From NCBI GenBank assembly GCA_949358305.1, contig OX442314.1, positions 22,444,001-22,508,000 of the forward strand: a DNA stretch of 64,000 nt, in the 5' to 3' direction. Within the stretch, counting starts at the first letter, position 1; every line of letters begins with the position of its first letter. This DNA comes from Strigamia acuminata. Its lineage: Eukaryota. The notes under the pieces are model-generated. The model did not search any database. It was not told the DNA's origin and worked only from the letters and a program-made list of their open reading frames with translations. This document shows positions 32,107-60,906 of the stretch, in pieces. The position numbers and the translations under genes were made by a program.

Positions 32107-32158
32107 CGAGATTGCTTTCTCGGATCTTTTGGGTAAACCCAAAAGGTGAAAGACAACA

Positions 32159-36412: not shown

Positions 36413-36418
36413 TTTTTT
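36372..36418 (-). promoter_or_regulatory. -1 programmed ribosomal frameshift signal
   Basis: A_AAA_AAC heptamer (36418-36412) in the gag frame, 5-nt spacer, then stem GACGCAG/CTGCGTC with inner TCCA/TGGA. The -1 frame (LVDADPSGLVDAASPP) is the pol frame. Confidence 0.9.
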
Positions 36419-39400
36419 CGAAACATGTCAGTTATGATCTTGACTGCTTTTTCAAACTCAGCTGTTGACACTGGTTTGTCCTTTTTAGAGGAAGGGCAGT
36501 CTTTTTGCCAATGCCCTAATTTTTTGCATAAATTGCATGGATCAGTGGCAGGCGATTTCTTTTTCGTTGCTGCTGGCGAGGCAGAACGAGAACGAGCGTC
36601 AGACCGGCGCTCTGGCGACACCGCAGGTGACTTTGAATTCCTTTCGGTATTCACCTTTGATGCGTCAAATGAAACATTTTTTGGTTTCATCCTTGGCTTC
36701 CATTTGCCCGCAACGGGGTTATTTTTTGCTAACAACGCCGTTGCTTTGGCCAATAAAGCCATCGTCTCGTCTCCTGTTTCCTCCTCCTCTTCAGCTTCTT
36801 CAGCTTCAGACGACGGAGTTTCAGCTCCAGTTATATTTGCGTGTAACTTAGGGACTGAATGAGGATTTTTGACGTCCTTTTTGGAAGATTCTTTTTTCGA
36901 ACTCTTCTCATCCACTTCGTCTAGAAAGTCTTCGTAACTAGGTGGCTGCAACAATTTCAAACCATTAAAGGTTTCATTGTTTTGCTCAGCGAGTCTTTTC
37001 TCTCGCTTTAAGTACGCTGACCTTTCGGCTTCTGTAAGATAAGCTTTGTACTTTTCGTCAATGCGCAATTGATTGACTTCCATGAACTCGTTTAACTCGG
37101 AGAATTTCCCCGGGTCGGGAGCGTCCGACATCATCAGAATATTTTTACTATATTCTGTGAGGCCAGCTCTAAACTGATCATCTGCTGTTGCATCAGTAAC
37201 AGCATGTGGCATTCTGCCAAGCAGATTCTCTGCTCTTAGCATGTACGAATGTAAGCTTTCGCCTTTTCGTTGCTTAAGACATCTCCAGAGCGTTTTGATG
37301 TCTTCGCTCGATTCACCAAATTTAAACATAAATTGTTTAACGAAGTCATCCCACTTCGTGAAGTCTTTCCTGCGAAACCACTCCTTGACACCGCCAACTA
37401 GTATTCTTGGTACTAGATGGGCCAATGCACCTTCACAGCTAAAACTGTGAACTTTGCCTAGTTCGAATATTTCCAGCAAGAGGTTTGACCCTGCTTGCCA
37501 ATTTCCATTATAGGCATGTGGGATAACTCGATCCCATCTAATGAACTTTTCATCTGTTGTTTGATGAGTCCATTTATCAGAAGTAAATTCACTTATTTTT
37601 TGCAAAATAATTTTATCCCTTCTGCTTTTTCGCTGTTGTTGAGCATTTTGCCTCAACAACTGGTCAATCTCATCTTTCGTGTAGAAATCGGGTCTTTGAG
37701 TTCTACTACGTGTTCTGTGACGAGATCGCCCTCTCACACTGGGACGTGAGGAATCTGTATCTGACGCAGATTCATGATTCGGATTTGGCGGCGGATCAGG
37801 GTCCGGAGGATCGTCGCCATCTGGCGGACGACGGTCTCCATTTGGTGGTCCCCTTCCATTTCGATTGCCATTCGAATTGTGGTCACGTGAGTGGCCACCT
37901 CCATGTCCATCTGAACTATCTCCACCTGGTGGGTCACCACCTGGCGGATTTCCACGGTATCTCGGCCCATCACGGATGTCGTTATGACAATCTCGTTTTG
38001 GTGAGCCTTCTCGCGGATTATCGTGTGACCGTCCACGATCGTGTGGTTTCTCACGTTCTTTATTCTTTTTCTCTAGCATTCCGATTAATCGGTCGCTATT
38101 GCTAAAGAATCGATCCGAATCTTGCGTAACTTTTGGGGAATGATATTCGGTCGGGTCTGGTTGTCGCTTTCGCTTTTTGCGACTGTGATGACTGTTACGG
38201 CTTCCACGACTACTGCGTGAGTCATCACTGTCAGTCCAACTTGATTGTCGACTGACTTTTGGTTTAGCTGATGTTAAATCAATCAACTCAGGTGATTTGG
38301 AAGCACCTTTTTGCAAAACTGGGGCTGGCTTTGCAAAATTATCTTCGCCACAAACGTCTTGTACTTTTTGTACGACTACTGCAAAGTTTTCTTGTACCGT
38401 CAATAGATCTGCGCGAAGAATTTCGTTTTCACGAGCTTGCGCAGCTAAGTCGGCACGTAATAACTGCTCTGCAGTGCTTAGACTTTTGGCGGCTTGACCA
38501 GCATCAATTACAGACTGCTGTCGAGCGAGAAATACTTCATTTTCTCGTTGCGCTAATCTCTTAGCTCTTGCTGCTTGTTCTGCAGCATAATTCTCGTAAT
38601 TTCGAGACGTGGAGGGAATTACTTCCCTCGCTCGAACTGGGGCGGTTAGTTCGGCAGTCATTAAATTTGTGTTGGCTTCTCGCAAATTTGCGTTAGCCAA
38701 TCTCAAATTTTCATTAGCAATTTCTAAATCTTTTTGTGCTTGATTTAGTTGCTCGAGCCTTTGTTGTTGCTCTTCGTCAGTAATTAGCCAGGAAGCTTTT
38801 TCCTGTTCTAATTGTAACAACTTAACATGGTCATTCGCACGTTGTTGTTTTAGTTCGGCATTTTGCTGATGCATTTCTGCACGCATTCGCTCGAACTCTG
38901 CTTGCAAGCTTGTTCTGACGATTTCAACGTCTTTTTGGCTTTGTTTGCGAACCATAGCTTTGTGGATTTGTTCCACAGTCATTTCGCTAGTGACTTTTAC
39001 TCCCTCGAGCCTAGCTTGCTCACGGAGTGCGTCCATCATGGTAACACGCACGGGAGAATGAGAAACTTCCATATTGGAGTTCTCAGAATCTTGTTGTGCT
39101 GCACCTTGAACCGGTGATGAATTCAGCGAGTGCTCCGCACTTGATGATTGAATTCGTAAATTCAAATCATCGTTTTGCGACTTGGAACGGCCACTTCCAG
39201 TTGGATTTTTTAAGTCCAACTGGCCGCTGGGCGGGGATGGCTGTTGTCGCTCCAACGCTTGCGTGAATTCATTCACGATTAACTGTGCCGAGTTACAGTT
39301 AGCTGTTTGATCCATAGTTTCAAACAGTTCTTGTGACTCAGTCACTTCTTGATCCACGGCTGGTAGATCGATCGCCACTCGTCTCTTCGCTGGTCTGCCT

Positions 39401-39429
39401 CTCGGTCTCTTTTCGCCTGGAGTCGCCAT
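36406..39429 (-). CDS. gag: Gypsy Gag, 1007 aa
   Basis: First ORF after the PBS. Coiled-coil and low-complexity N-terminus, capsid-like WFRR...WDDFVKQFMFKF...LKQRKGESLHSY, and zinc knuckle CNLCKKLGHWQKDC. Confidence 0.92.
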   Translation of the reverse strand: MATPGEKRPRGRPAKRRVAIDLPAVDQEVTESQELFETMDQTANCNSAQLIVNEFTQALERQQPSPPSGQLDLKNPTGSGRSKSQNDDLNLRIQSSSAEHSLNSSPVQGAAQQDSENSNMEVSHSPVRVTMMDALREQARLEGVKVTSEMTVEQIHKAMVRKQSQKDVEIVRTSLQAEFERMRAEMHQQNAELKQQRANDHVKLLQLEQEKASWLITDEEQQQRLEQLNQAQKDLEIANENLRLANANLREANTNLMTAELTAPVRAREVIPSTSRNYENYAAEQAARAKRLAQRENEVFLARQQSVIDAGQAAKSLSTAEQLLRADLAAQARENEILRADLLTVQENFAVVVQKVQDVCGEDNFAKPAPVLQKGASKSPELIDLTSAKPKVSRQSSWTDSDDSRSSRGSRNSHHSRKKRKRQPDPTEYHSPKVTQDSDRFFSNSDRLIGMLEKKNKEREKPHDRGRSHDNPREGSPKRDCHNDIRDGPRYRGNPPGGDPPGGDSSDGHGGGHSRDHNSNGNRNGRGPPNGDRRPPDGDDPPDPDPPPNPNHESASDTDSSRPSVRGRSRHRTRSRTQRPDFYTKDEIDQLLRQNAQQQRKSRRDKIILQKISEFTSDKWTHQTTDEKFIRWDRVIPHAYNGNWQAGSNLLLEIFELGKVHSFSCEGALAHLVPRILVGGVKEWFRRKDFTKWDDFVKQFMFKFGESSEDIKTLWRCLKQRKGESLHSYMLRAENLLGRMPHAVTDATADDQFRAGLTEYSKNILMMSDAPDPGKFSELNEFMEVNQLRIDEKYKAYLTEAERSAYLKREKRLAEQNNETFNGLKLLQPPSYEDFLDEVDEKSSKKESSKKDVKNPHSVPKLHANITGAETPSSEAEEAEEEEETGDETMALLAKATALLAKNNPVAGKWKPRMKPKNVSFDASKVNTERNSKSPAVSPERRSDARSRSASPAATKKKSPATDPCNLCKKLGHWQKDCPSSKKDKPVSTAEFEKAVKIITDMFRKNL

Positions 39430-39523
39430 TTTTCAAATGAAGACAAAGAAAGGATAGAGAAGAAAGATAAGCAAGATAAAAATGGCGGGTAAATTTTAAA
39501 CTATCAAAATTTATACAATGACT

Positions 39524-39541
39524 ATCCCGGCCAGGCCCCCA
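39524..39541 (-). other. Primer-binding site, tRNA-Pro-like
   Basis: TGGGGGCCTGGCCGGGAT, 2 nt inside the 5' LTR; 15/18 match to the canonical tRNA-Pro PBS TGGGGGCTCGTCCGGGAT. Confidence 0.8.
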
Positions 39542-39543
39542 CG

Positions 39544-40502
39544 TGCTGCGATCCGGGTTTTTATCCACTTAATTTCTAATAAATTAAGCAGAAACCGCAG
39601 GTGAATGCTTTACAAGACTTATATCGCGGCCGAAACTTGTCTAGGGTTAAGTTTACGGAAATAGGAATAAAAAGACAGTTTATTATGGTAATAAAAATCA
39701 CACAAATGTTTTATTCGATAAATTACAATATATACTAATTATGATTATGAATATCACAGAATAAAATGAGCGGGAAACAATGAAACAAAGGAAGGGCTTG
39801 CAACGACTGTTGCAAGCTACAAAGCGTCAGAAATGGCGCTTAAACAACTTGAAGTTGTTAGGCGAAGGCAAATTGTCTTCGTTCTACGAACTCACGAACG
39901 ATGGTCGAAGACGATGGTTCTCGTGGGCTCCTTCTACGGCTCGTGCGACGGCTCGGCGGCGGTGGTTGACGGCTGTAGGCGTCCGGCTTTCGTACGATGG
40001 CGGTGGCTGTCGTTCGCGCAACAGCGACGGCGATGGTTCACGATCGTCGGGAATCTTCTCTTCTCGATTGCTGGAATTAGCGACGGCTAATTCAAGCAGG
40101 ATTGCTGGCTTTGTGCGTTTGATACACAAAGATAGCAGGTGAAACTGAGTTACAACGGTCCTCTATCAATACTTTTCTTTCAGGAGCAAAAGCAGTGATG
40201 TTGAGGTTGTTGTTGTATTTTTCAGAGTCCCGATTTGAGCCAAGACGCGAGCCCAGCACGCTTCAATATTGCGCAGAAAACCTGCGCACTTAGCTCAAAT
40301 GGGTGCAACTAGTGGTTATTACACCATATTGCACCATAACGGCTAATAACCGTTTTCACCCCGGACAACCTGGGGTGATATGTGCCTAGAGAGGATTTCT
40401 CCCCTCGGTCACATGATCTGACTTGGCGTGTGCCACAGTCAAATTAATTAGAAGATAATTAATTTAATCTTCTAAGTTGGTGAATATTTTGAGATCACCA
40501 CA
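39544..40502 (-). repeat. 5' LTR of element 1
   Basis: Repeat of 28163-29121. Inr-like TCAGTT near 40146 and AATAAA near 39710 on the minus strand. Confidence 0.95.
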
Positions 40503-40885
40503 GGCAAAATGTAAAATTTCTTAGCGAAGTTGTTTTTGTGGTTTTTAGACTTATTTACAATGCCCAATGCATTGATATGGTAATACTACATTCTCTGCAT
40601 TGTTGTCATTTCCTGTGCATGTTTATTTATTTACTTATATGGAAATACGATGCATGATGGTTGGGAAAAATTGATTTACAATAAAGTAAAAAAAAATAAT
40701 GACGTAAGAAGAGCAAAATAAGAGTGTTTTCAAATTTAAAACACGGATGTTCGTGAACGAATGTGAAACCCCTTAGCCTTTAATCATGCAAATAAGTTGA
40801 ATATTTTTATAAAACGCGTGGTTATAAAAGCCATCAGCTGGTGCGCACCAATCTCAGACAGATTAGTGTTCAAACAACTCGAATC

Positions 40886-41967
40886 ATGAAGATCACTTTA
40901 CTCTTGGCAATCGTCGCCGTTGCAGTTGTTGATGAAGCGCAATCCGAAGTAAAATTCTAGGACATGATTAACGATAAAAAGACGTCTAATTTATTTTGTT
41001 TAATTTGTTTAAAATATTAGGATTGCTGCATAGTCAAACAGATGTATGCTGCGGTTGAAAAATTCATCAGACAGCTGGTTCCGGACAAAGCCGTAACAAT
41101 TTTATTTGCTATAGACTGTTTTATTTATTAACGTGTATTTTGACATTTTTGACAGCATCATGACACCTATTGTGGATGCGCAAAAGCTTTCATTTTAGGA
41201 GTACGTATTTTTTATTCAGTTTACAATTTATTACAATTTCTCAAGTTATATTTATTTTCTCGTAGGATTCCTCACAATGCGACCCCAAAAAATTTAAACT
41301 TCCACAAGCCAAAATCTGTGAAGAAGTTATGCAGCACGTGCGTTTTTATTTCATTTGATTTGATTTGATTTTTATTTGATTCCTATTTCATTTATTGAAA
41401 CATTGTAACAAAAATTTGTAGACGGACTTTAAGAAGAAATGCAAAGAACACAATATTTTGGGCTTCAAATCTTTGATCGAAAATGCAGTTTACTCCAACG
41501 GTGGGGACGCTGATGAAGTCTGCGAAAACATGCCAAAAGAAGTCGATAAAATGTTGGCGAAAGGAAAAGAATTGGAACAAGGAGGCCCCGGCAAAGCTAG
41601 TCAGTTGATTTATATCTTTCGATACAATATAATGATTTCAGTTGAAAGTAATCATTTTTTTTTCGTATTATTAGAGGAAGTGTACGACAAAGTGTGTAAA
41701 AAGGATCCCAAAGGTTGTAAAGATCTGACAGACCTTCCCCAAGAAGCTCAAGATTACATTACGAAAGATATGGCACCATGCTTTAAAGATTTAATCAAAT
41801 TGTGTAAAAATACCGCGAAATCCAAGACCATGCCTGCAATTGGCGCTGCTACTCAAGGAGTGGAATTGATGTTCGGAGGTGGTGATTTTGGTATCAAAGT
41901 GTCCAAATGTCTTAATGAAATTATTACTCTCGCTACCAAGATGGGTAAATCTATTTCTGGTCGTTAA
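40886..41967 (+). CDS. Orphan secreted protein, family A member 3
   Basis: TATAAAAG ~60 nt upstream, MKITLLLAIVAVAVV signal and six exons splicing in frame. Closest to 25317-26376. Confidence 0.88.
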
Positions 41968-43048
41968 GGAGTTGAAGTACTAAAATGTAATAATTGTACA
42001 ATTAAAAATTGTAAAATAAAAATACTTTCCAAAAGATATTATTATTGTATTTATATAGGTTGGAGATTCAGTCTCTCCACAATCCACACATGATAAATTT
42101 TTAGATTAATAGATTGCTTTAATTTTGTCAATAAAAATAAATTTGATTTATTTTAATTCAAACTATATTTTTTCCAAAAGATGATAAGGACGCCAATTTA
42201 GTGTGTTCTTCACTGTTATTCAGATGTAAAAATTGGGTAGTCAAGAAGCGGACGTTAGTAAAGTCATGAAATATCAGTAAAGCAAGATGGAGTCGGAGCA
42301 CTCACAAGCGACACTTAAATTTGGCGGCATTTGATTATTTTTTCAAACTTTCATAATGCGTTGTGCAGAGGAGTCGAAAGCAAAAATTGTCCAGGAATTG
42401 ACCAAAAAGTATTGCGGCGAAACCTGCATCTATTTTACATTTATCGCAAGCTTTTTATTATTATTATAATTATTTTCTCTGCAATGACTACAAATGGCGA
42501 CATTTTCCTCTGAGCTCTCAAAAGGTTTTGTTTACCCAGATCCACTGTTTGTTATTGTTACTCAAAATTCATTCTGTTTTAAACTTTCTGTGTTGCAACC
42601 GATCACAACAATTAAAATACCACGTTAGAAACTCGTATCATGGTCGTCAGTTGCAAGTGTTTCGCTGTATACAAGAATGCCAGTCGGTATATCAGCCTGA
42701 AGTGAGGTTTTACAAAAAATAATTATATTGCAAAACCAACTACTTGAAAGTATTTTCTTTCGTTTAATGATGCGTATTGCATATTTACGGTGTGAAAGGA
42801 AGTTGGTGTGCGTTTCCACAAAAGCACGGATTGTGTGCGTAGGGGTCGAGAAAATTATGATTCTAGACCGACTGATAATGGAGATGTAGAATTTGCCACG
42901 GATGTTCGTGAACAACTGTTAAACCCCTTATATTTATTGTAAAAAAATATTTGCGTTTTAGGATAACGAATAATTTTTGTATGCAAATTTGTATGCAATT
43001 TTTGTACGAAAACATCAATTTTGAAGTGACAAACTCAGAACTATAACC

Positions 43049-44095
43049 ATGAAGATTTTACTCCTTGCCGTTGCTCTTGTTTACAGTCTGCAAACTCAGA
43101 ACTCAGGTGGAAATGTAAGAATCCATTCTCATTTAACAAAAATAGCTCATTTTATTATTTTCTTTTATACATTTGAAGTGCGATGTAGTTACCGAAATGT
43201 ACAACCTTTCGGATAAAGCCATCGATCTATTCATCAGTGACAACAGAAGTGTAATAAACTTACAAAAAAAGTGTACTTTTACACTTAACTTTTAAATTTA
43301 TTTATTTATTTCTACGTATAGTACCATGCAATCTACGCTGGCTGTGCAAAAGCAGTAATATTTGGAGTATGTATTTTATTGAAATCGATTATAGTATTCT
43401 ATAATAATTTTTAATATTTGTTTTAGGATTCTAAAGATTGCAGATTGGATAAATTCGAAATACCACAGGCCAAAGTCTGTCAAAACATCATAAATAACGT
43501 AACTAAAAAATCGGATTAATTCTCTTAACTTGCACTGTAAATAAAAAATACAACATTTATTACACAGCTAGACGCAAAAAAATTATCAGCAAATAATCTT
43601 CTTAACTACAAATCCATAATTGATCATGCGATTGTTTTCAATGGTTGGAATGCTGATAAGGTCTGCAATACCATAGCAGTAGATGGAGAAATATATTTAA
43701 GAAAATTTAAGACGTATTTCGATAATTTAAGCGTCAGCGTATTGAGTCAGTTGATTTTTTTGTGAATATAATATTTACTGAATTATTATTATTTTTTTTT
43801 AGAACCACTTTACGATGCTTACTGTTCTGAGTATAAAAAGGATTGTGAAAAAATCGAAGCTCAATACGATCAAGTCAAAAATTACATTTTTGATGTTGTA
43901 TTTCCAAGCTTTAAAAAATACATCAAACTAGTTAAAAATATTTTTAAGTCTAAGTGGGTGCCAGTAACTAGTGCTTTTGTCGAAGGTATCCAAGTGTTGG
44001 CTGGAGGTGGTGAGTTTGGCGGCCAAGTCAACACATGCTATCACGAACTAATCACCATTGTAACTAGATTTGCTAAATCTAGATTAACTTACTAA
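43049..44095 (+). CDS. Orphan secreted protein, family A member 4
   Basis: MKILLLAVALVYSL signal. Same six-exon layout and Cys pattern as member 3 (YAGCAKA, DC..DKFEIPQAKVC, AGGGEFG..V..C). Confidence 0.85.
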
Positions 44096-44890
44096 ACTGT
44101 TGATATGATTATAAACTGTAGTGATATATACAATTAATATTGTACAATATTTTATGTGGAGAGAATAAATTAAAGTTGGATCATTAAAACTGCAATCTTG
44201 TATAAAAATTTTTGAGTCTTTTTCATTCTTTTTGTAAATATTTTTATTTTTGAAATATTTTTCGTTGGTCGAGAACTTTGTGGTTGACCCTAAAGTTCAT
44301 CGCACATCCTTCAGGTGAAATGAAATAGTTCAATGCACTAAAGAAGTTCAAGGTTAAGAATTATGCCATCTTATTATTTCATTTGTTTTCGTTCAGAGCA
44401 GTCATGAAAACTGTTTACATCGCAATTCTTGTGCTTGGATTGATTGGGGTAATATATTGACTTTTGTTTGAAAGTTAAAATTCAATCCACAGATTTCTTT
44501 AATGTTTATTTTTATTGTAAAAGGGAGTAATCTGTGAGGCATTTCCTTGGGAGAATACTTGCAATGTGTTCAGTTCTAAGTTTCGATTAAAAAAGGAAGA
44601 ATGCAGATCCTGTTTCGTGGTTGCATCGACAACAAACAAAGTAAGTTATGGGTTGAAATTATTGTTCTCATTCACAAATTGCTCAAATTATTATTTTTTA
44701 AACCATAAAACAACAGGAAAATGAAACATTTTCAGCTGCTCAAAAAACTTGTATCCATACATTACCAAAAATGGTAAATTTTAACGAAATTTTAATAAAA
44801 TTTACAGACAAATCTAATGTGAAAATTTAATTTTTAGTTTCATTCTTGCGCTGATGAGCCGGAGGTAGAAAACTGCCTGAAAGAAAACAT

Positions 44891-46050
44891 TGTAATGAGC
44901 TCAAATTTCACTATAAAATAATAGTGAAATTTCTTTCTCATTGGTGCCGCATCGGGACTTATCAAAATTCTACTAAAACTCAACTCTAAAATCTTAACTG
45001 ACTAATCAAAGAAGAAATAATCACTAATTAGTTCTTAAATAAAGGAAAAAGATTTATTCTTGGCTTGAATAAACTAATAGTAAAATACAATTAAATAATA
45101 GGAATTAAAGGTAAAAGTAATAATAATTGAAGGTGAAATGGCGAAAATAATACAAAATAGCGGCGATGGCTTGTCGCTCGCTCTCGAACTTCGTTCTTCA
45201 CTCGACGCTCGCTCTCGAACCTCGTTCTTCACTCGACGCTCGCTCTCGGACCTCGATACTCGCTCTCGGACCTCAATGCCCGCTCCAAACCTCAAAACGG
45301 CGTCCAAACTTCACTCTTTACTCACGATGTTCATTCCTGGTTAAACCGGACAAATTTCCGAATTCTTGGTGACTTGAACTCGGACACAATTCCGTTTCTT
45401 CTCTCTCAAAACTCGCAACAGATTCGGACACAATTCCGACTCTTCTTCCTTGATGACTCCGTGGTTGCGGCAAATTCCGCTTTATGTTGACTGGGACAAA
45501 TTTCCCAATGAGGATTTCTCATCCAAACAATGGCTGCTTGGCAAGAATGATGATCTCTCCAAACAATGGCTGCTTGGCAAGATGAAAATCCCACTGATGA
45601 ATATGCTCAATCAGCAAGATAAATTTCCCACTACTGGATGTACACAGTAGCAAGAACTCCCACAATAACTTTATGTTATTGTAAGAAATGAGTCTCAATA
45701 CTCAAGAACATCTCAAAACTGCTTTAGCAATTTGCAAGAAGGAGTCTAAATACTCAGGCAATCTTTCACCAAATCCACTTGAAGAATTGTATTTTCCCAG
45801 GGTAGATTTTGTGACTTGTTGCTCTCAAAGTTGATTTCAGACTGAAGATTTTTTCTCATTCTCTGCAGGAAGCATTTCCTGTTACAGGAAGCTCATGGGC
45901 TGGTTGCCCTGGCAACCACCCTCATGTCTTCAAGTTATGCCAGACTTCCTGTTCAGGCATAAAAAATAAACTCAAATAAAAATATGAAATATATAAAATA
46001 TTTCCAGACACATTTCTGTTCTTCATCTAGTGACCACTAGGGTCACTACA
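44891..46050 (-). repeat. 3' LTR of element 2
   Basis: Direct repeat of 50641-51800; contains internal tandem repeats (45175-45273; 45522-45582). Confidence 0.95.
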
Positions 46051-46086
46051 CTTCCCCCCTTTTTAGGAAGTTAGTTCCTAACTTCT

Positions 46087-49000
46087 CTAAATCTCATCAT
46101 CGATCCTCGAGGCGAAGTCCTTGATGGGGATTTCAGATTCGGAGACCGAAAACTTCAGTTTGTCTTGGGATTTCGTTGAATCATTCCTTGTCGTAACCGA
46201 TTGATTCTGTCCAGCAATTGCAGATGGTGTCCCGCTCCCAGGACTGAAATCCTGCCATCCGCTTCTTCCGGCAGCTTCCTTCAAGTGACCGGTCCAGTTG
46301 GCTCGAACAGGCAATTGATTTTCAGTTGTGTGTTCAAATGATCTGAAACAGGCATCTTGCAAAACTTTGCCTGAGTCAGCTCGATCATTCTGAGTTTTAA
46401 CATTCATTTCTGGTGTTGTCGCCACTAATTGTTGTTGCACAGCTGATGCGTTTGTTGCTTCAAAATTCAATGGCTTTTTGCTTTCCATTAATGTGATTTT
46501 ATTCCCTGCAATCTTCTCAATTTCAAGCCACTGCTTCTGGATTTCCGGTTGAGTGTTTGGCAAATCTACATGTTGAATTCTGAACTCCTCCAATAAAAAA
46601 CTTGCAACTGGCTGTTTTCCTTCAGATGTACTCTTAATTGTAACTGTAGTGGGCACTGTAGCTCTGCTGTCTGAATTGCTACAATCAGATTTTTTAACAG
46701 TATCTGAAAAATTAATCTTGGACTTATTTCCAATTGCAACTGCACTGACAATATGTTTCTGTAGGTCAGTTGATTCAGTGTAGCTTGCGTAACTAAGCTT
46801 CATTGCAGTTTTAACTTCACTGGACTCCATGAAGTGTTGATCAACTTGGATTATTTGATTTGGTTGCTTTTCCAATAAATTAATTTTTGAAATGTTTTCA
46901 GTTGTGATTGAGCTGGCAGCAAATTTTGGTAACTCAATTGATTGAGTGTTGTGTTGCTTCAAGTCAATTCTCTGCAAAGTTTTTTCCAAAATTCTGTTTT
47001 CTTTTTCTGTTGGTCGTGGACCTTGTTTTTCAATTTGACCAATTGATGTTAATACTTGGCAATCTTGATTTTCTGGTCGTCCTTTCAATCCTGTATTTGT
47101 ATGCTGTTTACTGCAAAGCATCTTGTAATCATCTGTTTGTAGAGGTTTTTCATTTTCATGTTCACTCCTTGTATCTCCAGATGTTTGGATTGTTTCTACC
47201 AGTTTAACTTCAGACCTTTCCTCTAATTGAATCAATTGCTGTTTAGCTTGGATTCTTTTCTTTGGCAGCTTCTCCACTTTTTCTTTGGTGTCTTGAGTTT
47301 CATTTGCCAAATCCAGTCGCTGATAACAATTTTTGATCAAAATTTTTACTTCCTGTAGGTCTTCAGAAGTTATATTTTCCAGTATGTTCTTCAGAGCCAC
47401 GATGAAATATTTGGAGGGCCACTCTGAATTCTGCCGACATAATTTCGGTGAAAACGTGGAATCTTGTAACATTACATTATCTGTCAGTCGTTTGATCACT
47501 TTTCGAAGTTGTTTTCGAACAATTTTCGTTTCTCGAACCAGACATTTATTTTCTGATTTTCTAGGATTCCTGGATGAATTTTGATTCTTTTTCTCTTTTT
47601 CCATCACTCTTCCCCCCTTTTTTGGAAATGGTTGAACTTGTTCATCAGTTTCAAAATCTACACTTTTTGGAAAAAGCAATGGATTTTCTTCTAAGTTTTC
47701 AAAAATCAAATTTTCTGTGTCCGATTCGATAATTTTTTCTGCAATCTGTGCATCATCTTGGTTCTTCTTATCATCAGAATTTTGTGTATCCTGTAGAGGT
47801 TGCGCATTTTTGTGAGCTTGCATTTTGTTCGATTTGGACGCACTTTGTGTAATTCCTGTATTTTCAACAACCTGTGTGTCTTCTGCATGTCGTGTGTCTT
47901 CTGCACTTTGCACACTTTTTTCTTCTTGTTGTCTACCATCTATGGCTGTTTTTTGGTCATTGAAATTTTCGAAATTGATTGATCTTTGATGGTGACGATC
48001 ATTTTCGTTTGGCCAGCCTGCCATACATGTGTCAACTTGTGTTTGGCCAAGTTCTCTGTTTGCTGTGGACATTCTGATGTCATCTGGTTGTTGGAGGTTC
48101 TGCTTGTCCATGACATCAAATAACATTTTCTTCTGAGCAGGTGTTGAGGTTTGGTTATTATCTCTACGATATTTTGTATCGTCATTTCCTCGCTTTACTG
48201 CATTTCCTGTTGAATCCGTAATTGACTGTTCAACTTTCGACTGATGCATGACACTTGCTGTATTCCTAACTGGTGGACACCGTGAATGTGCCATGTACCG
48301 CAGCTCTTGTGGATCTGGTTTTGACTTCTTTGCGTCTTCCTGAGCTGGTGGAGATGCTTTAGGAAAATTTTCGTTTTCAACATGCAATGATGATTCCATT
48401 GTCTTCCCTTCTACGACGAGTGCTTGATTAAAGCTGTCAATCTTTTCCATTTTTTCAGAAGGTGTCTTTTTTGCAAAATTAATCGAAAATGTTTTCATTT
48501 CTAGAATTAAGCTTTTCCTCGATTCAGACATTGTTTCTGTTTCTTCACCAGATGTAGATAACCTTTTTAATGCCTTCTTGACTGCATCCATTGCTACTGG
48601 CAATGACAATTTTTTGGCAACTTCAGAAAACCTTAAGTCCACTGGTGAGTTGTGTCTTTTCCTTGTGGTTACCTCAGCACTGGTCCCATATCTTAAAATT
48701 TTCTGGTCATCTCTGGATTGACGTTTCGTCTCTGCAGGACTGTCTCTAGTTTCGGTCTGTAAACGGCGACGTACTTCTTGTAATTTAAGTCGGGTTGGCG
48801 AGCGTACTGCTGATAATGCCGTGCTGTCAACTGATTTTCTGGTCGAAGTCTTCTTATCCGCCTTTATTAAACAACCTCTTTCTTCGGTTATTTTGATTGG
48901 TTCTTCGAACAACAATTTCGTGAGATCGCTTTTGCTTCGTGGAATGGATTTTACATTTTCAGATAATGAACGTACTGGAGATGTGGTGCGCGATACGTAA

Positions 49001-50379
49001 TGTCTTCGTGATTGTACTTTGTTGGCTTCGAATTTATTTTGTGTTTCGCGTATTTCAAGCTCCATTCTTATTTGCGCGAGTTTATTGTCCAATTTGGTTT
49101 CACGTTCCTTGCGCTCTTCCACAAGTAATTGTTCCTGTAGTTTTTGCTCTTCTAATCTGTAACATTCCCTCCGCTGATCTCGATCATTCGCCGCAGCTAT
49201 CCATGCAGCATATTCCTCGTGGGACATTGGTTCATTTATGTGGCAATAACATGCTTCATGCGTAATGTCTAGCATCCGGTCTTGTACTTCTCGCAGCTTG
49301 AGACGTGTTGGCGAAATTATTCTTTTCAACTGTGTCAAGTCGGTCCTGCAACTGGGTGAGAATCTTGCGCGATTTAGCAATAAACACTTTTGACATGTGG
49401 CACGTGGTACGCATTGTTTTGGTGATTGCACTGTTTGCATTGTTAAATCCACTGATTCCTGGGAACTCGAGGGAGATTTTGCTAGACTTTCATCCGTTTG
49501 TTTCAAGACGAATTCTTGTTCTTTTATTGCGTTTGCTGGTGAACCAAAGTTATACGACTCATTTCGATAAGAGTAACCATACTCGTTTTGCTGACACGCT
49601 TTGTCTTTGAAATGTGATTCACTTTTCTGGCGGGCTTCGTCCTGATAACGCGACTCATTTCGCTGATTTGAGTCCTCGTTTGGACGTGAGTTGTTCTTAA
49701 AACGTGATTCACTTCTGTGGCAAATTTCGTCATGATAATGCGACTCATTTCGCGGATCTGAATTTTCGCGTTGACGTGATTCGCAACAATAACGCGACTC
49801 GTTTCGCGAATGTGAGTCCTCTTGTTGACACTCTTTGTCACGGTAGTGCGACTCATTTCGCGACTGGAAGTCCTCGTATTGGCGGAAATCGTCTTTGAGC
49901 GAACGTTCTCGTGACGTAGAAGGACCATGTTCTTCTTTTCTTTGATTAACTTCGCTTCGACTATCAAGTCCCGAATCATTTCGGTTATCATATCGAATGT
50001 CGTATTTTGGTATATCCTGATCTCGTTGATCGCATCTTCTTTGATAGTTCTGTGGTGAAGAAGAATGACGCATTTCATTTTTATCTCTTGATTGCCGTGT
50101 CTTATGGATTGTTAATGTACCACTTCTACTCTGGCTGGCTTGTAGTTGGTGGTCAGCCATCTTGATTGTAAAATCTTGGAAAAAATTTTCTTGATCCCGT
50201 TGAACAATCTTGGAATGTTTTCTGTCATCTGTGTTCTTAATGGCAATCGGAGACGACATATCTTCTGTGTGGTGTAACAATCCCAAATGTGGTGGCAAAC
50301 TATATCTTTTCAATCGCAATGATGATTGTTGAACTTCCATGGTTGGTCTTTGTACTTGTTTCTTATGATGATCAGACAT
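46087..50379 (-). CDS. Orphan 1430-aa hydrophilic, largely low-complexity protein encoded by element 2
   Basis: Uninterrupted 4.3-kb ORF filling the internal region. ~7 RNES(H/R)Y-type repeats, Cys/His cluster (CQKC...HEACYCH), coiled coil, duplicated SPTRLKL motif. Confidence 0.8.
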   Translation of the reverse strand: MSDHHKKQVQRPTMEVQQSSLRLKRYSLPPHLGLLHHTEDMSSPIAIKNTDDRKHSKIVQRDQENFFQDFTIKMADHQLQASQSRSGTLTIHKTRQSRDKNEMRHSSSPQNYQRRCDQRDQDIPKYDIRYDNRNDSGLDSRSEVNQRKEEHGPSTSRERSLKDDFRQYEDFQSRNESHYRDKECQQEDSHSRNESRYCCESRQRENSDPRNESHYHDEICHRSESRFKNNSRPNEDSNQRNESRYQDEARQKSESHFKDKACQQNEYGYSYRNESYNFGSPANAIKEQEFVLKQTDESLAKSPSSSQESVDLTMQTVQSPKQCVPRATCQKCLLLNRARFSPSCRTDLTQLKRIISPTRLKLREVQDRMLDITHEACYCHINEPMSHEEYAAWIAAANDRDQRRECYRLEEQKLQEQLLVEERKERETKLDNKLAQIRMELEIRETQNKFEANKVQSRRHYVSRTTSPVRSLSENVKSIPRSKSDLTKLLFEEPIKITEERGCLIKADKKTSTRKSVDSTALSAVRSPTRLKLQEVRRRLQTETRDSPAETKRQSRDDQKILRYGTSAEVTTRKRHNSPVDLRFSEVAKKLSLPVAMDAVKKALKRLSTSGEETETMSESRKSLILEMKTFSINFAKKTPSEKMEKIDSFNQALVVEGKTMESSLHVENENFPKASPPAQEDAKKSKPDPQELRYMAHSRCPPVRNTASVMHQSKVEQSITDSTGNAVKRGNDDTKYRRDNNQTSTPAQKKMLFDVMDKQNLQQPDDIRMSTANRELGQTQVDTCMAGWPNENDRHHQRSINFENFNDQKTAIDGRQQEEKSVQSAEDTRHAEDTQVVENTGITQSASKSNKMQAHKNAQPLQDTQNSDDKKNQDDAQIAEKIIESDTENLIFENLEENPLLFPKSVDFETDEQVQPFPKKGGRVMEKEKKNQNSSRNPRKSENKCLVRETKIVRKQLRKVIKRLTDNVMLQDSTFSPKLCRQNSEWPSKYFIVALKNILENITSEDLQEVKILIKNCYQRLDLANETQDTKEKVEKLPKKRIQAKQQLIQLEERSEVKLVETIQTSGDTRSEHENEKPLQTDDYKMLCSKQHTNTGLKGRPENQDCQVLTSIGQIEKQGPRPTEKENRILEKTLQRIDLKQHNTQSIELPKFAASSITTENISKINLLEKQPNQIIQVDQHFMESSEVKTAMKLSYASYTESTDLQKHIVSAVAIGNKSKINFSDTVKKSDCSNSDSRATVPTTVTIKSTSEGKQPVASFLLEEFRIQHVDLPNTQPEIQKQWLEIEKIAGNKITLMESKKPLNFEATNASAVQQQLVATTPEMNVKTQNDRADSGKVLQDACFRSFEHTTENQLPVRANWTGHLKEAAGRSGWQDFSPGSGTPSAIAGQNQSVTTRNDSTKSQDKLKFSVSESEIPIKDFASRIDDEI

Positions 50380-50640
50380 GATGTTAATTTTTAGTAGATA
50401 GGATAATGAAGAAAGAAATAGTTTAACTTAGAAAAATATCTTCTAAACTCTGTTAACCATTTTCCCCCTTTTTTGTTTGAGAACCAAAAAAAAAAATTCA
50501 CACCTATTCTTACTACAAATCAAAAAATAGAAGTTCCTCAATCTAATTAACCTATCACAAAACAATTTTCCAAACAAATTAGGTCCCTCAACTAAATAAA
50601 AGTTGTTAAGGTTCAAATCTTTCAGGCCCAGGCCCCCAAG

Positions 50641-51800
50641 TGTAATGAGCTCAAATTTCACTATAAAATAATAGTGAAATTTCTTTCTCATTGGTGCCGC
50701 ATCGGGACTTATCAAAATTCTACTAAAACTCAACTCTAAAATCTTAACTGACTAATCAAAGAAGAAATAATCACTAATTAGTTCTTAAATAAAGGAAAAA
50801 GATTTATTCTTGGCTTGAATAAACTAATAGTAAAATACAATTAAATAATAGGAATTAAAGGTAAAAGTAATAATAATTGAAGGTGAAATGGCGAAAATAA
50901 TACAAAATAGCGGCGATGGCTTGTCGCTCGCTCTCGAACTTCGTTCTTCACTCGACGCTCGCTCTCGAACCTCGTTCTTCACTCGACGCTCGCTCTCGGA
51001 CCTCGATACTCGCTCTCGGACCTCAATGCCCGCTCCAAACCTCAAAACGGCGTCCAAACTTCACTCTTTACTCACGATGTTCATTCCTGGTTAAACCGGA
51101 CAAATTTCCGAATTCTTGGTGACTTGAACTCGGACACAATTCCGTTTCTTCTCTCTCAAAACTCGCAACAGATTCGGACACAATTCCGACTCTTCTTCCT
51201 TGATGACTCCGTGGTTGCGGCAAATTCCGCTTTATGTTGACTGGGACAAATTTCCCAATGAGGATTTCTCATCCAAACAATGGCTGCTTGGCAAGAATGA
51301 TGATCTCTCCAAACAATGGCTGCTTGGCAAGATGAAAATCCCACTGATGAATATGCTCAATCAGCAAGATAAATTTCCCACTACTGGATGTACACAGTAG
51401 CAAGAACTCCCACAATAACTTTATGTTATTGTAAGAAATGAGTCTCAATACTCAAGAACATCTCAAAACTGCTTTAGCAATTTGCAAGAAGGAGTCTAAA
51501 TACTCAGGCAATCTTTCACCAAATCCACTTGAAGAATTGTATTTTCCCAGGGTAGATTTTGTGACTTGTTGCTCTCAAAGTTGATTTCAGACTGAAGATT
51601 TTTTCTCATTCTCTGCAGGAAGCATTTCCTGTTACAGGAAGCTCATGGGCTGGTTGCCCTGGCAACCACCCTCATGTCTTCAAGTTATGCCAGACTTCCT
51701 GTTCAGGCATAAAAAATAAACTCAAATAAAAATATGAAATATATAAAATATTTCCAGACACATTTCTGTTCTTCATCTAGTGACCACTAGGGTCACTACA
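50641..51800 (-). repeat. 5' LTR of element 2
   Basis: Direct repeat of 44891-46050, adjacent to the PBS. Confidence 0.95.
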
Positions 51801-52132
51801 ACATTCGTGAATTTTTTGTGAGTATTGCAGCGAAGCTTACATTTCTTATACTCCGAGTTTGTTTCTTTTTCTCATTTTACAGAAACAGAAATTCCAGCAA
51901 TTTTGGAAACGCTGGAAAGAAGTTTTCACAGAAGTTTGTATATACAATTAGATATCATAATTCATATTTAAACATTTTTACTTTATTATTAAATTTATAG
52001 ACTGAAAAAGGTCGAATCCACCAAGTTTTTTCACTCAAGACAATTTTATACAAAATCGGAGTAGAATCTCAGAAAAATAGCAATAATAACCTTGATCTAG
52101 TAATTATTCCATCTTTTAATCGATTTAATTAA

Positions 52133-52315
<183 letters not shown>

Positions 52316-53099
52316 TAATAAAATCCACAAAACAAAACGCAACTGACGCTTAATTTCACAGGAAGGTAATGAGGAAGATGATGACATTGAAGACGATTTG
52401 GAAAGAAAGAAAAGAGAGAATTCCTATGATGATTTAGAGGAAGATAATTTCCAAGAAGACAAAGTTTTCGCAGAAAAGAAAGCCAGGTTAAGCGCGTATA
52501 TTGATACCGCTTTTGAGTCATTTCACTGTAAAGTCAAGCAAATTGTAAGTGTTTATTGAAATAGTTACCCATCCATCCATTATCCCCGTACATAATAGTC
52601 ATCTTTAATTTATTACGTAGAAAACAAACCAAGTTATCAAAAATATTTTTAAAAATATTATCGAGCATTCGTATGACGATGTAGTTCCTGCTGAGGTATG
52701 AGGATGACTAAGTATCTATAAAACACTTTTTAATATTGTCTATTTTATATATTTTAGATCGTGAGAGCTCTCTATACGTAGAAAAGAATATATATGAAAT
52801 AAAAGTGCATAAGTAATAATTTAAAGTGTGTAACTTCCGGTGTTTTTCTTACATATTTGTTAACTTAACCTTGAATATTTATGAACTCTTTTCACATTTT
52901 GTAAGTTGCGGAGGAAGTTGAAATAAAAAATGAACAAACAAGTTTCCTTTCCTTTTATATATGTAACTATGAAAATTCATAATTCATATTTCATGAGCTT
53001 TGTGGACGCACGTGTTAGCATAACGGATGCCACATGCACTCTATATAGACCAAAACATCGTCGCAAACATTTTACAAAAAATAAAATTGAAGATTTACG

Positions 53100-54775
53100 A
53101 TGAGATTTTTAATCTTTTTGCTTATAAATTGTCTCACTGTGTTTTGTGAAGAGGTAAAATCATTTTGATTAAAAAGTAGAGAGAAAAAGTTTAAAAATCT
53201 TATAATTTCAGAAAAAAAAGGGAGAAACAGACAAACACATAATATTCTCAGTATGTGAATATTACGATAACATTGGAAATGAAGTAAATATTATATTTTA
53301 ATATTTTGACATAAAATAATTTTATATTTATAATTTTAGGCAAAAAGAAACGAATGTGTCACCTGCCTGAAAACTTCATATGGATCAAGTGAGGTATGTA
53401 GAAACTAGAAATTATGAATTTATTTTTAAAAAAATGCTAAAGAATGTGTTTGATGTCAAATGTGTTTCTGTTTTCAAATGTAGAAACTTAAGTGTATTTA
53501 GCATTAGCAGCGAAGCTCAGGGGTAGCGTATTATAACATTTACTTTTTTTGGTGCAGGTTCCAACAGACAACTTAAAAAAATGCATCGAAGCACTTCCAG
53601 AACGGGTAAGGATATGTGTTATGAACATTAATAAAGCTCTCTAGTGGAGGTTTTATAAAATATATTTATTTCGGTATTAGTGTGTTTACTTATTTCAAAT
53701 ATATATTTTTTTTAGTTTAGAAAGTGTACTGAATCTAAGGTAATAAATAAAAATAAAGATTTGTATTATTTAAATTATCGTTAATTAATTTCAGACGATT
53801 TTTCCAACGTTTAAACAAGAAATTTTAAAATGGCGCGAGGTAAATAATTTTTTTGATGCGCTTATTTACTTAAAAAATTAATCCCAAAACTTTAGGAACA
53901 AAGAATTATATTTACTAAAAACCATAAAGACGTTCTAAGTTTTGTAAGTACAAACTACAAATTTAATAGGGGTAAATAAAATTAACAAAATTTCCACAAT
54001 TGTTTGTAGAAAGAAATCGAAACTTTGAGTCAAGTCGCTGCCAGTTTCTTCATGGCACATCACATGGTTAAAGATTTGCCAGCAAAACAAATAGAATCGG
54101 TTAGTTTTTATCAATATCTCAAAAAAACTATCTTATACTCCGTAATAATTAAGTTATACTATTTTAAAATAGCTAATAAAACCAGTTTATAAGTGTTTGG
54201 AACCAGGAATGGATATGTCTAAATTTGATAATGAAGTGATGAATGAACAAGATGTTGAAAATGGGGTAATGAATCTCTTAATAGTTAATAAAAATAAAAT
54301 TTACTTTTTTAAAATAACCATTTCAGTTAAATAATGATGAAGGCACGATGATAAAGAAGGGATCCAACGTTGTAAAGCGTCAGGCAACTGAAGTAATTAA
54401 TTTATTTATTTTACGCACCAAATCACATTTTATTTTACTCGTAATTTATATTATTACAGGACGATGTTTCCATTCGAACGAGAGTAAAAAATATGTATAA
54501 AAGAGTGGTTCGATATTACGTCTGCTCAATTAATAGAATTGTAACGTTAAATAAACTCTAAATTTGTTTAAATTAATCTTGATAATTCTCTTGTTCTCTT
54601 TTTAAGGGCGAAGATAAAGAAGCTTCCAGTATAGTCAAGGAGTACATGATAAAGTACGAAGGCATAGTCCCTGCAAAGGTAAACAGTAGTAAAGACATCG
54701 AAAATCGAACACCTCATAATTCAATCACATTTTTGTTGTTATTTGCAGGTGGCAAGGGATGCTTGCAAGTGGTAG
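53100..54775 (+). CDS. Orphan secreted protein, family B member 2 (13 small exons, all introns phase 0)
   Basis: MRFLIFLLINCLTVFC signal. Aligns to member 1 at ECxxC, CIxxLP, FxxC, (V/F)YxC, a dibasic site and Y..(I/V)VPA. Stop at 54773-54775. Confidence 0.8.
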
Positions 54776-55404
54776 GATCAAAATAAAGAAATTGGCAAAA
54801 TACTTTATGTAATTAAATTATTAAAGAAAGGAATAAAATAAAAATGGGCATCTATATCTAGATCGCTTCAGTTACTTTTTTTGATTCACACACATCTCAG
54901 ATCTCAAATGCTGCCTATAAGATGCGAGCTTAAAAATTTTAATTCTCGCATTTTATTGGTACGATTCCTACGCTTTGGTACTCTATTTAGATCTCCTGTG
55001 GTGCATTAGACACCACAGGACCACATATTTTGTTATGTATTTACGCAAGCATCCATATTATTTTACAACAATATTTTGGCTCAAACGAACATAACAACTA
55101 CGAGTATGTAACCGTGTTGCTAGGTTTCCACGCATAGCAACACAAGAATTAGTTATGAATAAAGTCAGTCGACACCCAAAATTTGACTAACTTAGTAACC
55201 ATCTTCATTTCTGCTGTGGAATTTAACACTACAGATTTTAAGCTGTTGTCAGCAGTGTCTGTCAGAATTGCATTGTCGCGGATATACCGACACTGTTGTC
55301 GCTCTGGTGTGTGTCACGCGAGGGCAGTGACGCGACTTTGGCTAGTTTCGCCCCGCCCCCCTTTATTAGCATAAAATTACTGGTGGCGCTGCGAGTGCGA
55401 GCGC

Positions 55405-57116
55405 GTCATGAAATATCAGTAAAACAACAAACGGCATTTGATTTTTTTTTCAAACTTTCATAATGCGTTGTGCAGAGAAGCTGAAAGTAGAAATTGTCCC
55501 CGAATTGACCAAAAAGTATTGCGGCGAAACCTGCATGCTTTTTACTATTATTATAATTATTTGCTCTGCAAAAGCTACAAATGGCGGCATTGTATTTTAT
55601 AACTAAACTACTTTTTCTACTTGCCAATAACCTTCGCCCCTGAGCTCTCAAAAGGTTTTGTTTATCCAGATCCACTGTTTGTTATTGTTACTCAAAATCC
55701 ATTGTTTTAAACTTTATTGTTCCAACGATGAAAACAATTAAAATACCACGTTAGAAACTCGTATCATTGTTTTCAGTTGCAATTGTTTCGCTGTATACAA
55801 GAATACCAGTCGGTATATCAGCCTGAAGTGAAGTTTTACAAAAAATAATTATATTGCATATTTATGGTGTAAAAGGAAGTTGGTATGCGTTTCCACAAAA
55901 GCACAGATTGTGTGCGTAGACCGACTGATAATGCAGATTTAGAATTTGCCACGGATGTTCGTCAACAACTGTTATACCCCTTAAATTTATTGTAAAAAAT
56001 TATTTGAGTTTTAGGATAACGAATAATTTTTGTCTGCATAGAACTCTGTCATTTGTACGAAAACCAATTTTGAAGTAAAAAACTCAGAACTATACCCATG
56101 AAGATTTTACTTCTTACCGTTGCTCTTGTTTACAGTCTGCAAACTCAGAACTCAGGTGGAAATGTAAGAATCCATTCTTCTTTAATAAAAATAGCTCATT
56201 TTATTCTTTTCTTTTATAAATTTAAAGTCCGATGTAATTACCGAATTGTACAACCTTTCGGATAAAGCCATCGATCTATTCATCAGTGACAACAGAAGTG
56301 TAATAAACTTACAAAAAAAGTGTAATTTTACACTTAACTTTTAAGTTTATTTATTCATTTCTACATATAGTACCATGCAATCTACGCTGGCTGTGCAAAA
56401 GCAGTAATATTTGGAGTATGTATTTTATTGAAATCGATTATAGTATTCTATTATGATTTTTAATATTTGTTTTAGGATTCTAAAGATTGCAGATTGGATA
56501 AATTCGAAATACCACAGGCCAAAGTCTGTCAAAACATCATAAATAACGTAACTAAAAAATCGGATTAATTCTCTTAACTTGCACTGGAAATAAAAAATAC
56601 AACATTTATTACACAGCTAGACGCAAAAAAATTATCAACAAATAATCTTCTTAACTACAAATCCATAATTGATCATGCGATTGTTTTCAATGGCTGGAAT
56701 GTTAATAAGGTCTACAATAAAATAGCAGTAGATGGAGAAATAGCATTAAGAAAATTGAAGACGTATTTCGATACTTTAAGCGTCAGCGTGTTGAGTCAGT
56801 TGATTTTTTTGTGAATATAATATTTACTGAATTGTTGTTATTTTTTTTTAGAAACACTTAACGATACTTTCTGTGCTGATTATAAAAAGGATTGTGAAAA
56901 AATCGAAGCTCAATATGATCAAGTCAAAAATTACATTTTTGATGTGGTATTTCCAAGCTTTAGAAAATGCATCAGAATACTTAAAAATATTTTTAAGTCT
57001 AAGTGGGTGCCATTAACTAATGCTTTTGATAAAGGTCTCCAATTGTGGGCTGGAGGTGGTGAGTTTGGTGGCCAAGTCATCACATGCTACCACGAACTAA
57101 TCACCATTGTAACTAG
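55405..57116 (+). repeat. Recent segmental duplication of ~42263-44067
   Basis: High nucleotide identity across ~700 bp of upstream DNA, introns and exons. Confidence 0.92.
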
Positions 57117-60032: not shown

Positions 60033-60141
60033 AGAAAAGTGAATGCCACGTTCGAATTTGATATTATTGCAAATATTTATCAATTACGGATAATTTTTTA
60101 CAACTATAAATAAAATTATTTTAATAAAACGGGGAAACTGT

Positions 60142-60230
60142 TCAAGAGTGTTCGTTTAATCCGGGTATTCTGTAGACGAATCGGTCTTTTTCGTCGTAGA
60201 CAGTGTCGCCGTGTTGGACTAACCGCTCTT
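60142..60230 (-). pseudogene. NGRN: Isolated 3' end of neugrin, tail-to-tail with ODR4
   Basis: Encodes VQHGDTVYDEKDRFVYRIPGLNEHS*, resembling the neugrin C-terminal G..YD..G.FLYR(I/V)PG motif. Frame is closed upstream. Confidence 0.6.
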
Positions 60231-60906
60231 CGGCGGATATTTATATTTTGAAACGTATTGCTGGTCATCATCTGCAGTGGATGACTGCTGGTCATCATCT
60301 TCAGTATGCTGGGTACTGTTTAATGATGCAGTACAGTTTCCAGTTGATGATTTACTCTCTTCAGTGCAGAAGTTTAAATCAGTGCATGTTTCACTTGTAT
60401 CATGTTGGTTTTTGTTTACTGAAGATGATACAATATGACCACTGTTTTCAAAGTCTTCATATGATGGAACTTCCTTCATATAGAAATTTCAAATCTTATG
60501 TATTATCAAATGTTATTAATTTTATGTAAGAAAAAAAGTTGTTTGAAAAATTGCCATTGTTTAAGTATCATGCCATCAAGAATTTTTAATGGTTTTAAAT
60601 AAATTTTTATGGACTTTTGATAGCTTTTTAATGTATTCATAAACCCGACATTGGAGCATTCGTAAACCAGATAAAACATGTTGTACTTCAATGTCAGGAC
60701 TGATTTCTCCGGAAGAATTACTGTGGCTCATCGCCGAATAAATAAATACACCTAGACCACCATAATAAAACGGGTTTCGTTGGTCGCAACCAGATTGCGC
60801 TGCTCGCGCATGCGCGTAATTAAAACTGCTGTTTTCTTAGCTTGAAAATAACACAAGGTTTTTTTGAACTGTATAAAGATCAGCATCCAAACTACACGAG
60901 GGCGCC

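Follow-up and report, generated by a model that had tools for sequence, protein, structure and literature searches.

A long terminal repeat (LTR) retrotransposon without pol, its interior given over to one open reading frame (ORF) of 1430 codons, lies at positions 44,891 to 51,800 of a 64,000-nucleotide stretch of the Strigamia acuminata genome (GenBank assembly GCA_949358305.1, contig OX442314.1, positions 22,444,001 to 22,508,000 of the forward strand). This whole stretch is called the window below, and all coordinates refer to it. On sequence evidence, the element is tentatively read as a recent polymorphic insertion of a pol-less, likely multi-copy, non-autonomous family of Ty3/gypsy type, whose protein (P0001) would be a Gag-derived, flexible partner in co-assembly. 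Its standing as a dependent LTR element is much firmer than any of the roles considered for the protein.

A pol-less element built around one reading frame

The element is read on the minus strand in the order 5' LTR, 2-nt spacer, primer-binding site, 261-nt leader, 1430-codon ORF, 22 nt, polypurine tract (PPT) and 3' LTR (Table 1). Both LTRs are 1160 bp long, begin with TG, end with CA and show no mismatch; with the target-site duplication (TSD), the primer site and the PPT they complete the structural set of an LTR retrotransposon. The initial annotation had called the element recently transposed from its matching LTRs, ACAT TSD, primer site and PPT, a description that is borne out and to which an empty insertion site in one public run (X3, below) can be added. 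The primer site, TGGGGGCCTGG, is perhaps tRNA-Pro-like; no tRNA gene was found in the window.

The ORF contains no stop codon, against about 94 expected from base composition (P ~8e-43) and 53 to 115 in the other five frames. It covers 4293 of the 4590 interior bases (94%), and the only further ATG-initiated ORF of at least 100 aa in the interior is a nested 184-aa frame. Non-autonomous LTR elements of the LARD and TRIM kinds are typically non-coding; because this one codes, it is not placed among them. Scans of the ORF for the YxDD, D[ST]G[AS], CCHC and GPY/GPF patterns gave no match, and the protease, reverse transcriptase (RT), RNase H and integrase of an autonomous Ty3/gypsy pol were not found in it, while the Pol of a neighbouring gypsy element was detected as a control.

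P0001 is rich in S, E, K, Q and R, which sum to 43% of its residues. Traits of an env-type protein are absent from it, with neither a signal peptide nor a transmembrane anchor (peak 19-residue hydropathy 0.61). In a single-sequence model of aa 294-1200, 748 of the 907 residues fall below pLDDT 50. The stretch at aa ~320-460, singled out earlier for profile and structure searches, did yield a confidently predicted coiled coil (aa 400-463), but no domain and generic fold matches only. A Cys-containing helical stretch (aa 323-396) precedes the coiled coil, and helical islands at aa 326-396, 583-664 and 945-1056 are modelled with low confidence.

The inverted repeat between stop codon and PPT (46067-46085), proposed earlier as a hairpin, is present in the sequence, but its fold does not rise above chance: the surrounding 66-nt region has a fold z of -1.48, 15 of 200 shuffles do equally well, and in the best predicted structure one arm pairs with the PPT and the LTR start, not with the other arm. 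A search of Rfam returned a single match, to mir-304, which at E 0.052 misses the threshold and is attributed to chance. The LTR itself contains CG-rich tandem repeats of 31 nt and 20 nt (45170-45285, 50920-51035), and the public runs contain many LTR variants that lack 60-440 nt.

Table 1. Features of the pol-less element and its insertion site (window coordinates)
Feature	Position	Strand	Remarks
5' LTR	50641..51800	-	1160 bp, TG...CA; matches 3' LTR fully
3' LTR	44891..46050	-	1160 bp; single AATAAA at 45058-45053 (LTR position 993), candidate polyadenylation signal
ACAT TSD, left copy, 4 bp	44887..44890	.	Repeat comparison and empty site in run X3
ACAT TSD, right copy, 4 bp	51801..51804	.	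Repeat comparison
Primer-binding site TGGGGGCCTGG, 11 nt	50628..50638	-	2-nt spacer between 5' LTR and site
AT-rich hairpin, 12 bp, at U5 end	50653..50682 (copy 44903-44932)	-	Just upstream of primer site; region fold z -3.45; 0 of 200 shuffles equal
Leader, 261 nt	50380..50640	-	One upstream ATG; PPT near-copy at 50474-50460; many non-triplet indels among family variants
Single ORF, 1430 aa (P0001)	46087..50379	-	No recognised domain or transmembrane segment; hydrophilic; disorder predicted over most of its length
Degenerate 90-nt (30-aa) repeats	49601..49888	-	aa 165-260; R/S/E/D-rich units with NES[RH]Y; unit count varies in frame among variants
Predicted long helix/coiled coil	48991..49182	-	aa 400-463; sole confidently modelled part (pLDDT 70-93)
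Exact 14-nt PPT copy within ORF	47609..47622	-	~aa 920-924; could be a central PPT or what is left of an earlier 3' end
Low-confidence helical island	47212..47547	-	aa 945-1056; weak Pfam DED score; generic helical-bundle matches only
8-bp inverted repeat, stop codon to PPT	46067..46085	-	Not significant alone
PPT, 14 nt	46051..46064	-	Abuts 3' LTR; 22 nt beyond stop codon
Exon pieces of a putative interrupted small gene	44404-44448, 44838-44890, 51805-51817, 51883-51933	+	First exon signal-peptide-like

Copies, polymorphism and the state of the frame

Contigs of three public runs (X2, X3 and X6) were compared with window positions 43500-53500; X3 belongs to a different study from X2 and a further run, X1. 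X6 contributed just 10 pieces of low depth and was not used for expression. Between 81 and 91% of the interior's words are present in three public runs from two studies, the richest of which may come from the source sample. No RNA run was listed among those carrying the sequence, a result that says nothing about expression. One 3089-nt contig of X3 passes directly from 44885 to 51800; this empty site makes the insertion polymorphic and confirms the TSD. In X2, flank contigs end at 44891 and 51800, the exact points where filled and empty alleles diverge, which suggests that both alleles are present in that run.

Near-identical interior contigs reach 19-26 times the depth of the flank in X2 and 19 times in X3, diverged ones (roughly 5-20% different) 9-13 times, and the summed interior depth is 37-41 times that of the flank, a rough ratio that does not amount to a copy number. 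Judged from these contigs, the family likely comprises tens of copies in several variants. The many copies and recent movement expected of a non-autonomous family are thus seen in a depth ratio of about 20 or more, in the diverged variants and in the polymorphic site.

Every ORF length change whose net size can be read keeps the frame (8 of 8). These changes comprise deletions of 168 nt at 46695-46871 and of 63 nt at 47195-47273, an insertion of 3 nt at 47436, a compensated -1/+1 pair at 49158-49163, a gain of 72 nt within the repeats, and net changes of -18, -9 and -3 read from the lengths of contig pieces. At a chance of 1/3 each, such an outcome would arise about once in 6500, although the events are not fully independent. 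By contrast, the 261-nt leader accounts for nine of the 12 small indels listed, and eight of those nine are not multiples of three. The long ORF is kept in frame across diverged variants of a multi-copy family.

The wider claim that an ORF this open implies selection fits the behaviour of the frame; at the level of amino acids the point variants show no sign of it. Among the 11 listed point variants in the ORF, nine are nonsynonymous, two synonymous and none creates a stop, where neutrality predicts about 8 nonsynonymous and 2.9 synonymous (p 0.40). These 11 belong to 40 variants listed of 829, a sample that favours changes private to the window's copy. Since all eight length changes are in frame and yet nine of 11 point variants are nonsynonymous, selection looks to act on the openness of the frame more than on its sequence, so far as these variants tell.

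Such a pattern would also arise if the frame were kept for the sake of the RNA. Translation to within 22 nt of the PPT would spare the transcript from nonsense-mediated decay, a generally known mechanism, or keep ribosomes bound to it, and the protein itself would be near inert. The ORF tolerates gains and losses of as many as 56 codons as long as the frame is kept, the listed point variants behave as under neutrality, no folded domain is apparent and the ORF fills nearly all of the interior, all of which suits this explanation. TRIM and LARD elements, however, transpose without a long ORF, about 1 kb of LTR would stay behind as a 3' untranslated region in any case, and P0001 does contain a confidently predicted coiled coil of 60 aa; the variant sample on which the argument draws is also tiny and biased. 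That the frame is kept open on behalf of the RNA is regarded as unlikely.

Dependent LTR elements are generally viewed as either non-coding or donors of Gag. In a young family that is spreading and holds a 4.3-kb frame open while its residues apparently drift, one can test directly why a parasite of another parasite should bear the cost of translation, the alternatives at stake being a protein that competes for the packaging of the helper and the survival of the RNA.

Origin of P0001 and the question of a helper

An intact Ty3/gypsy element (28163-40502, minus strand) lies 4.4 kb away, with 959-bp LTRs that show no mismatch and the TSD GGCA. It encodes a Gag of 1007 aa, in which about 600 disordered or coiled-coil residues stand ahead of the capsid, a Pol of 1390 aa, whose closest solved structure is that of Ty3 (E 1.3e-105), and a GC-rich ORF3 (29174-30733; 519 aa, no Pfam family; GC at third codon positions, GC3, 0.60 against 0.34 in pol). 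Primer site (11 nt), spacer (2 nt) and TSD length (4 bp) agree between the two elements, as do eight of the first ten LTR bases, and each has a 12-bp hairpin at its U5 end. From these shared signals the pol-less element and its neighbour would appear to belong to the same clade. In both, the PPT can pair with sequence just upstream; in the neighbour, a significant hairpin at 29116-29181 (minus strand) takes in the 5' part of the PPT (z -3.1; 1 of 200 shuffles). The neighbour was considered as a direct helper and judged unlikely, since the LTR bodies are unrelated.

Several features of P0001 recall the front part of a gypsy Gag. The ORF starts 261 nt past the LTR, in the gag position, and its A-rich coding strand has a GC3 of 0.33, compared with 0.38 in the gag, 0.34 in the pol and 0.60 in the ORF3 of the neighbour. 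Charged residues make up 0.32 of P0001 and 0.30 of aa 1-600 of the neighbour's Gag, and S, T, N and Q 0.30 and 0.28, while aromatic residues are at 0.05 in P0001 versus 0.12 in the neighbour's capsid region. P0001 may thus derive from the long, disordered, coiled-coil front part of a Gag that lost its capsid and zinc knuckle, and the ORF may have grown by repeat expansion and end-to-end joins. Following established LTR biology, the element would be transcribed from its 5' LTR, primed by a tRNA at TGGGGGCCTGG for the first strand and at the PPT, possibly at an internal copy too, for the plus strand. The enzymes of a related gypsy helper would copy it in trans, and the helper's integrase would leave the 4-bp duplication. 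P0001 would co-assemble with the Gag of that helper and favour its own RNA in the helper's particles. The functions proposed in the initial annotation (packaging scaffold, condensate former or silencing suppressor in the service of the element's spread) are likewise conjectural.

Several observations weigh against this account. The case for Gag ancestry is one of position and composition, in which any other disordered protein might agree, and P0001 cannot be aligned convincingly with the neighbour's Gag (E 2.3 at best in BLASTP, 0.05 or more in phmmer). Beyond its termini the neighbour's LTR is unrelated, and the U5 end differs. No helper was identified among the sequences examined, in which X2 and X3 contigs show another interior behind the same PPT. 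With contigs this short, a pol in some of the high-depth copies would escape notice. The predominance of nonsynonymous point variants given above, close to the neutral expectation, belongs here as well. The frame count covers the rows listed, beyond which there are a further 76 rows of indels, 21 of joints and 323 of loose ends; it leaves out two ORF joints, which skip 7 and 13 and are bridged by unknown letters.

The contigs with another interior, three in X2 and three in X3, follow the element as far as 46070, immediately past the PPT, where foreign sequence takes over (in X3 with a median of 255 nt); near the end of the ORF, at 46157, a further two contigs of X3 exit. They may represent the helper or a variant with a different 3' end. 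They also fit the proposal that the element arose by internal deletion from an autonomous gypsy element with a very long Gag that starts in this way, in which case the in-frame variants would come from autonomous copies and the protein would have no role here. The disordered and coiled-coil residues ahead of the neighbour's capsid give this proposal a precedent, and short contigs cannot link ORF and PPT copy by copy. Depth is, however, roughly level across the ORF, with no high-depth joint or branch inside it among the rows listed, and the stop codon lies 22 nt before the PPT. A pre-capsid region of 1430 aa would be more than twice the neighbour's, and no long Gag or Gag-Pol was matched by aa 1-1000 among 1.84 billion representatives. 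A deletion origin is considered quite unlikely.

Whether P0001 hides a capsid was addressed with profiles and models. Pfam assigned no family to the whole protein; since the capsid in the neighbour's Gag likewise went undetected at whole-protein scale, both were rescanned in overlapping 200-aa windows. Two windows of the neighbour's Gag then matched Retrotrans_gag (E 9e-8 and 0.002), and none of the 14 windows of P0001 matched a Gag or Pol family. Together with the absence of stops and of pattern matches, this agrees with the initial annotation of one uninterrupted interior ORF without RT, protease, integrase or CCHC motif. By sequence profile P0001 thus lacks the capsid domain that marks the Gag-only elements TR-GAG, Bik and Quinta, and no CCHC pattern of a nucleocapsid zinc knuckle occurs in it, while the neighbour's Gag scores for zf-CCHC. 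Single-sequence models of aa 294-1200 and aa 935-1075 were poor (pTM 0.29 and 0.36, no alignment). With these models Foldseek found no match at E 0.001, and a VIA fold search returned generic helices and bundles only (best Z 7.9 and 6.7), with capsid and death domain absent from the matches listed, a result that excludes neither.

P0001 could accordingly be a complete but extremely diverged Gag, its capsid concealed in the helical islands at aa 583-664 and 945-1056, and the element an ordinary Gag-only one like Bik-1 or TR-GAG. The report on Bik-1 describes an ORF that was uncharacterised until structure prediction revealed its capsid (PMC12067270), and the P0001 models, made without an alignment, are poor. 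Yet the 200-aa windows that recovered the neighbour's capsid at E 9e-8 recovered nothing in P0001, the helical islands are set apart by long polar stretches, P0001 has no zinc knuckle, and the hydrophobic content of the best 150-aa window is at most 0.31, as against 0.36 in the neighbour's Gag. A hidden capsid appears distinctly improbable. Divergent Gag and deletion product, the two origins that the initial annotation named as refuting its reading, each keep a small probability.

Searches for relatives of P0001 were blank throughout. No homologue was confirmed among 5526 candidates of similar length or 4203 shorter ones, and HMMER with aa 1-1000 found no match among 1.84 billion representatives of any length, the only search to cover proteins longer than 2503 aa. 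None of 155 pattern matches in metagenome contigs or two in viral contigs was confirmed as a relative, the best match to PDB sequences had an E of 0.21, the ESM Atlas gave no usable match for aa 300-470 or 935-1075, and none of four proteins looked up in a 15-billion-protein collection was present. A control search with the capsid region of the neighbour's Gag was equally blank (0 of 1137), so the lack of matches partly reflects poor sampling of the lineage. The label of orphan is weak evidence in this lineage, where a genuine capsid region comes out just as empty. A DED domain at aa 994-1054 was rejected as too weak (E 0.055, 14 bits against a cut-off of 35.9; E 0.64 in another window). Searches of the open-licence literature listed no account of the element, nor of any invertebrate LTR element that combines a giant ORF with the lack of a capsid.

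These searches also bear on the suggestion that the ORF came from the host by capture, or is an accessory gene of the ORF3 type such as a silencing suppressor or death-pathway decoy, left between LTRs after the loss of gag and pol. Animals often show gene capture by way of LTRs (PMC5131818), and rotifer and plant elements can have additional ORFs whose function is unknown (PMC5408684, PMC7264820). There is an orphan ORF3 in the neighbour, and the weak DED score and an internal PPT copy, which could mark a template-switch join, might be read in the same sense. No search produced a host homologue, however, and the window contains no parent gene. The base composition is like that of gag and pol rather than ORF3, no alignment to the neighbour's ORF3 was obtained, and the DED score is far below its cut-off. 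Capture is considered very improbable.

The internal PPT copy is itself unusual. None of 2000 codon shuffles reached 14 nt (best 12), the neighbouring gypsy element has no comparable internal copy (best 8 nt), and A4+G5+A runs occur only three times in the window, all of them within the pol-less element. By analogy, the copy could prime a second plus strand; it could equally mark an old 3' end, the ORF having been extended by a join. The central PPTs of Ty1, EVADE and HIV-1 prime a second plus strand and, like the tract described here, are extra purine tracts in coding sequence about 60% along the element (PMC7197481). The present tract differs in being a candidate only, and perhaps the relic of a 3' end.

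If the tract did serve as a second plus-strand start, it would fit a bolder picture, in which the element is a capsid-less, pol-less satellite and its giant disordered protein a selfish adaptor or condensate scaffold that loads its own RNA into the particles of a helper. This is considered unlikely as a whole. Were it true, it would constitute a coding strategy distinct from that of Gag-only and of non-coding satellites. Elements of this kind are invisible to domain-based annotation and may be undercounted in invertebrate genomes.

Known dependent elements and the host locus

Pol-less LTR elements with a single ORF are already known, and the initial annotation overstated the case in treating a coding one as exceptional: TR-GAG, RLG_Quinta and Bik-1 form an established class, in all of which the ORF is a Gag (PMC4350172, PMC11302176, PMC12067270). 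The present element would work in the same manner but has a giant ORF that fails the capsid profile and knuckle tests. Since its models are poor as well, it is not filed with TR-GAG, Bik or Quinta.

The closest likeness is to zebrafish BHIKHARI (Bik-1/Bik-2), an insertion-polymorphic LTR element with one long ORF and no pol or env. Its protein was long considered uncharacterised and has an N-terminal coiled coil, and no partner of the element is identified in the report on it (PMC12067270). In contrast to the 1430 aa, gypsy-type ends, mostly predicted disorder and undetected capsid of the element described here, Bik-1 has 617 aa, is retroviral (lokiretrovirus-related) and contains a predicted capsid domain, with a glycine-rich patch in place of the zinc knuckle (PMC12067270). 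Plant TR-GAG elements are likewise non-autonomous LTR elements with a single ORF and signs of activity, although they are shorter than 4 kb and have a recognisable Gag, whereas the present element is 6.9 kb long, has none that is recognised and resides in a genome that looks animal from its flanking genes and spliceosomal introns (PMC4350172). In the Triticeae, RLG_Quinta is the non-autonomous partner of RLG_Cereba, a partnership defined by a common primer site, PPT and LTR termini. Its one ORF includes a domain of unknown function, as well as clear Gag homology, and its helper is identified; neither of the latter is established here (PMC11302176).

Two further systems resemble the element in part. 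Retrocopies mediated by LTRs, as with MaLR and MERVL, also involve cargo between LTRs moved in trans, but here no parent gene was found and one frame fills the interior of a multi-copy family (PMC5131818). The extra ORFs of rotifer and plant elements are non-Gag and non-Pol, often of unknown function and in some cases coiled-coil; they accompany gag and pol, however, while the ORF described here is the sole gene and stands in the gag position (PMC5408684, PMC7264820).

At its insertion site the element splits what would be coding exon 2 of a small gene; this exon has AG...GT borders and phase 0, and the exons on either side match it in phase. The copy segregates and disrupts an apparent coding exon of a host gene whose product is likely secreted, which makes the family a current source of mutation. 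Contigs of X2 and X3 also link the host flank at 53315 to the element at 48477 with 10 letters between, possibly through a short shared repeat. The window contains a tandem family of small, likely secreted, Cys-containing genes (21800-27700, 40800-44100 and 55400-57000) with no Pfam match and 83-94% identity. At 58341-64000 there is a recent inverted duplication with arms 97-99% complementary, in which two ODR4-like copies flank a neugrin-like ORF.

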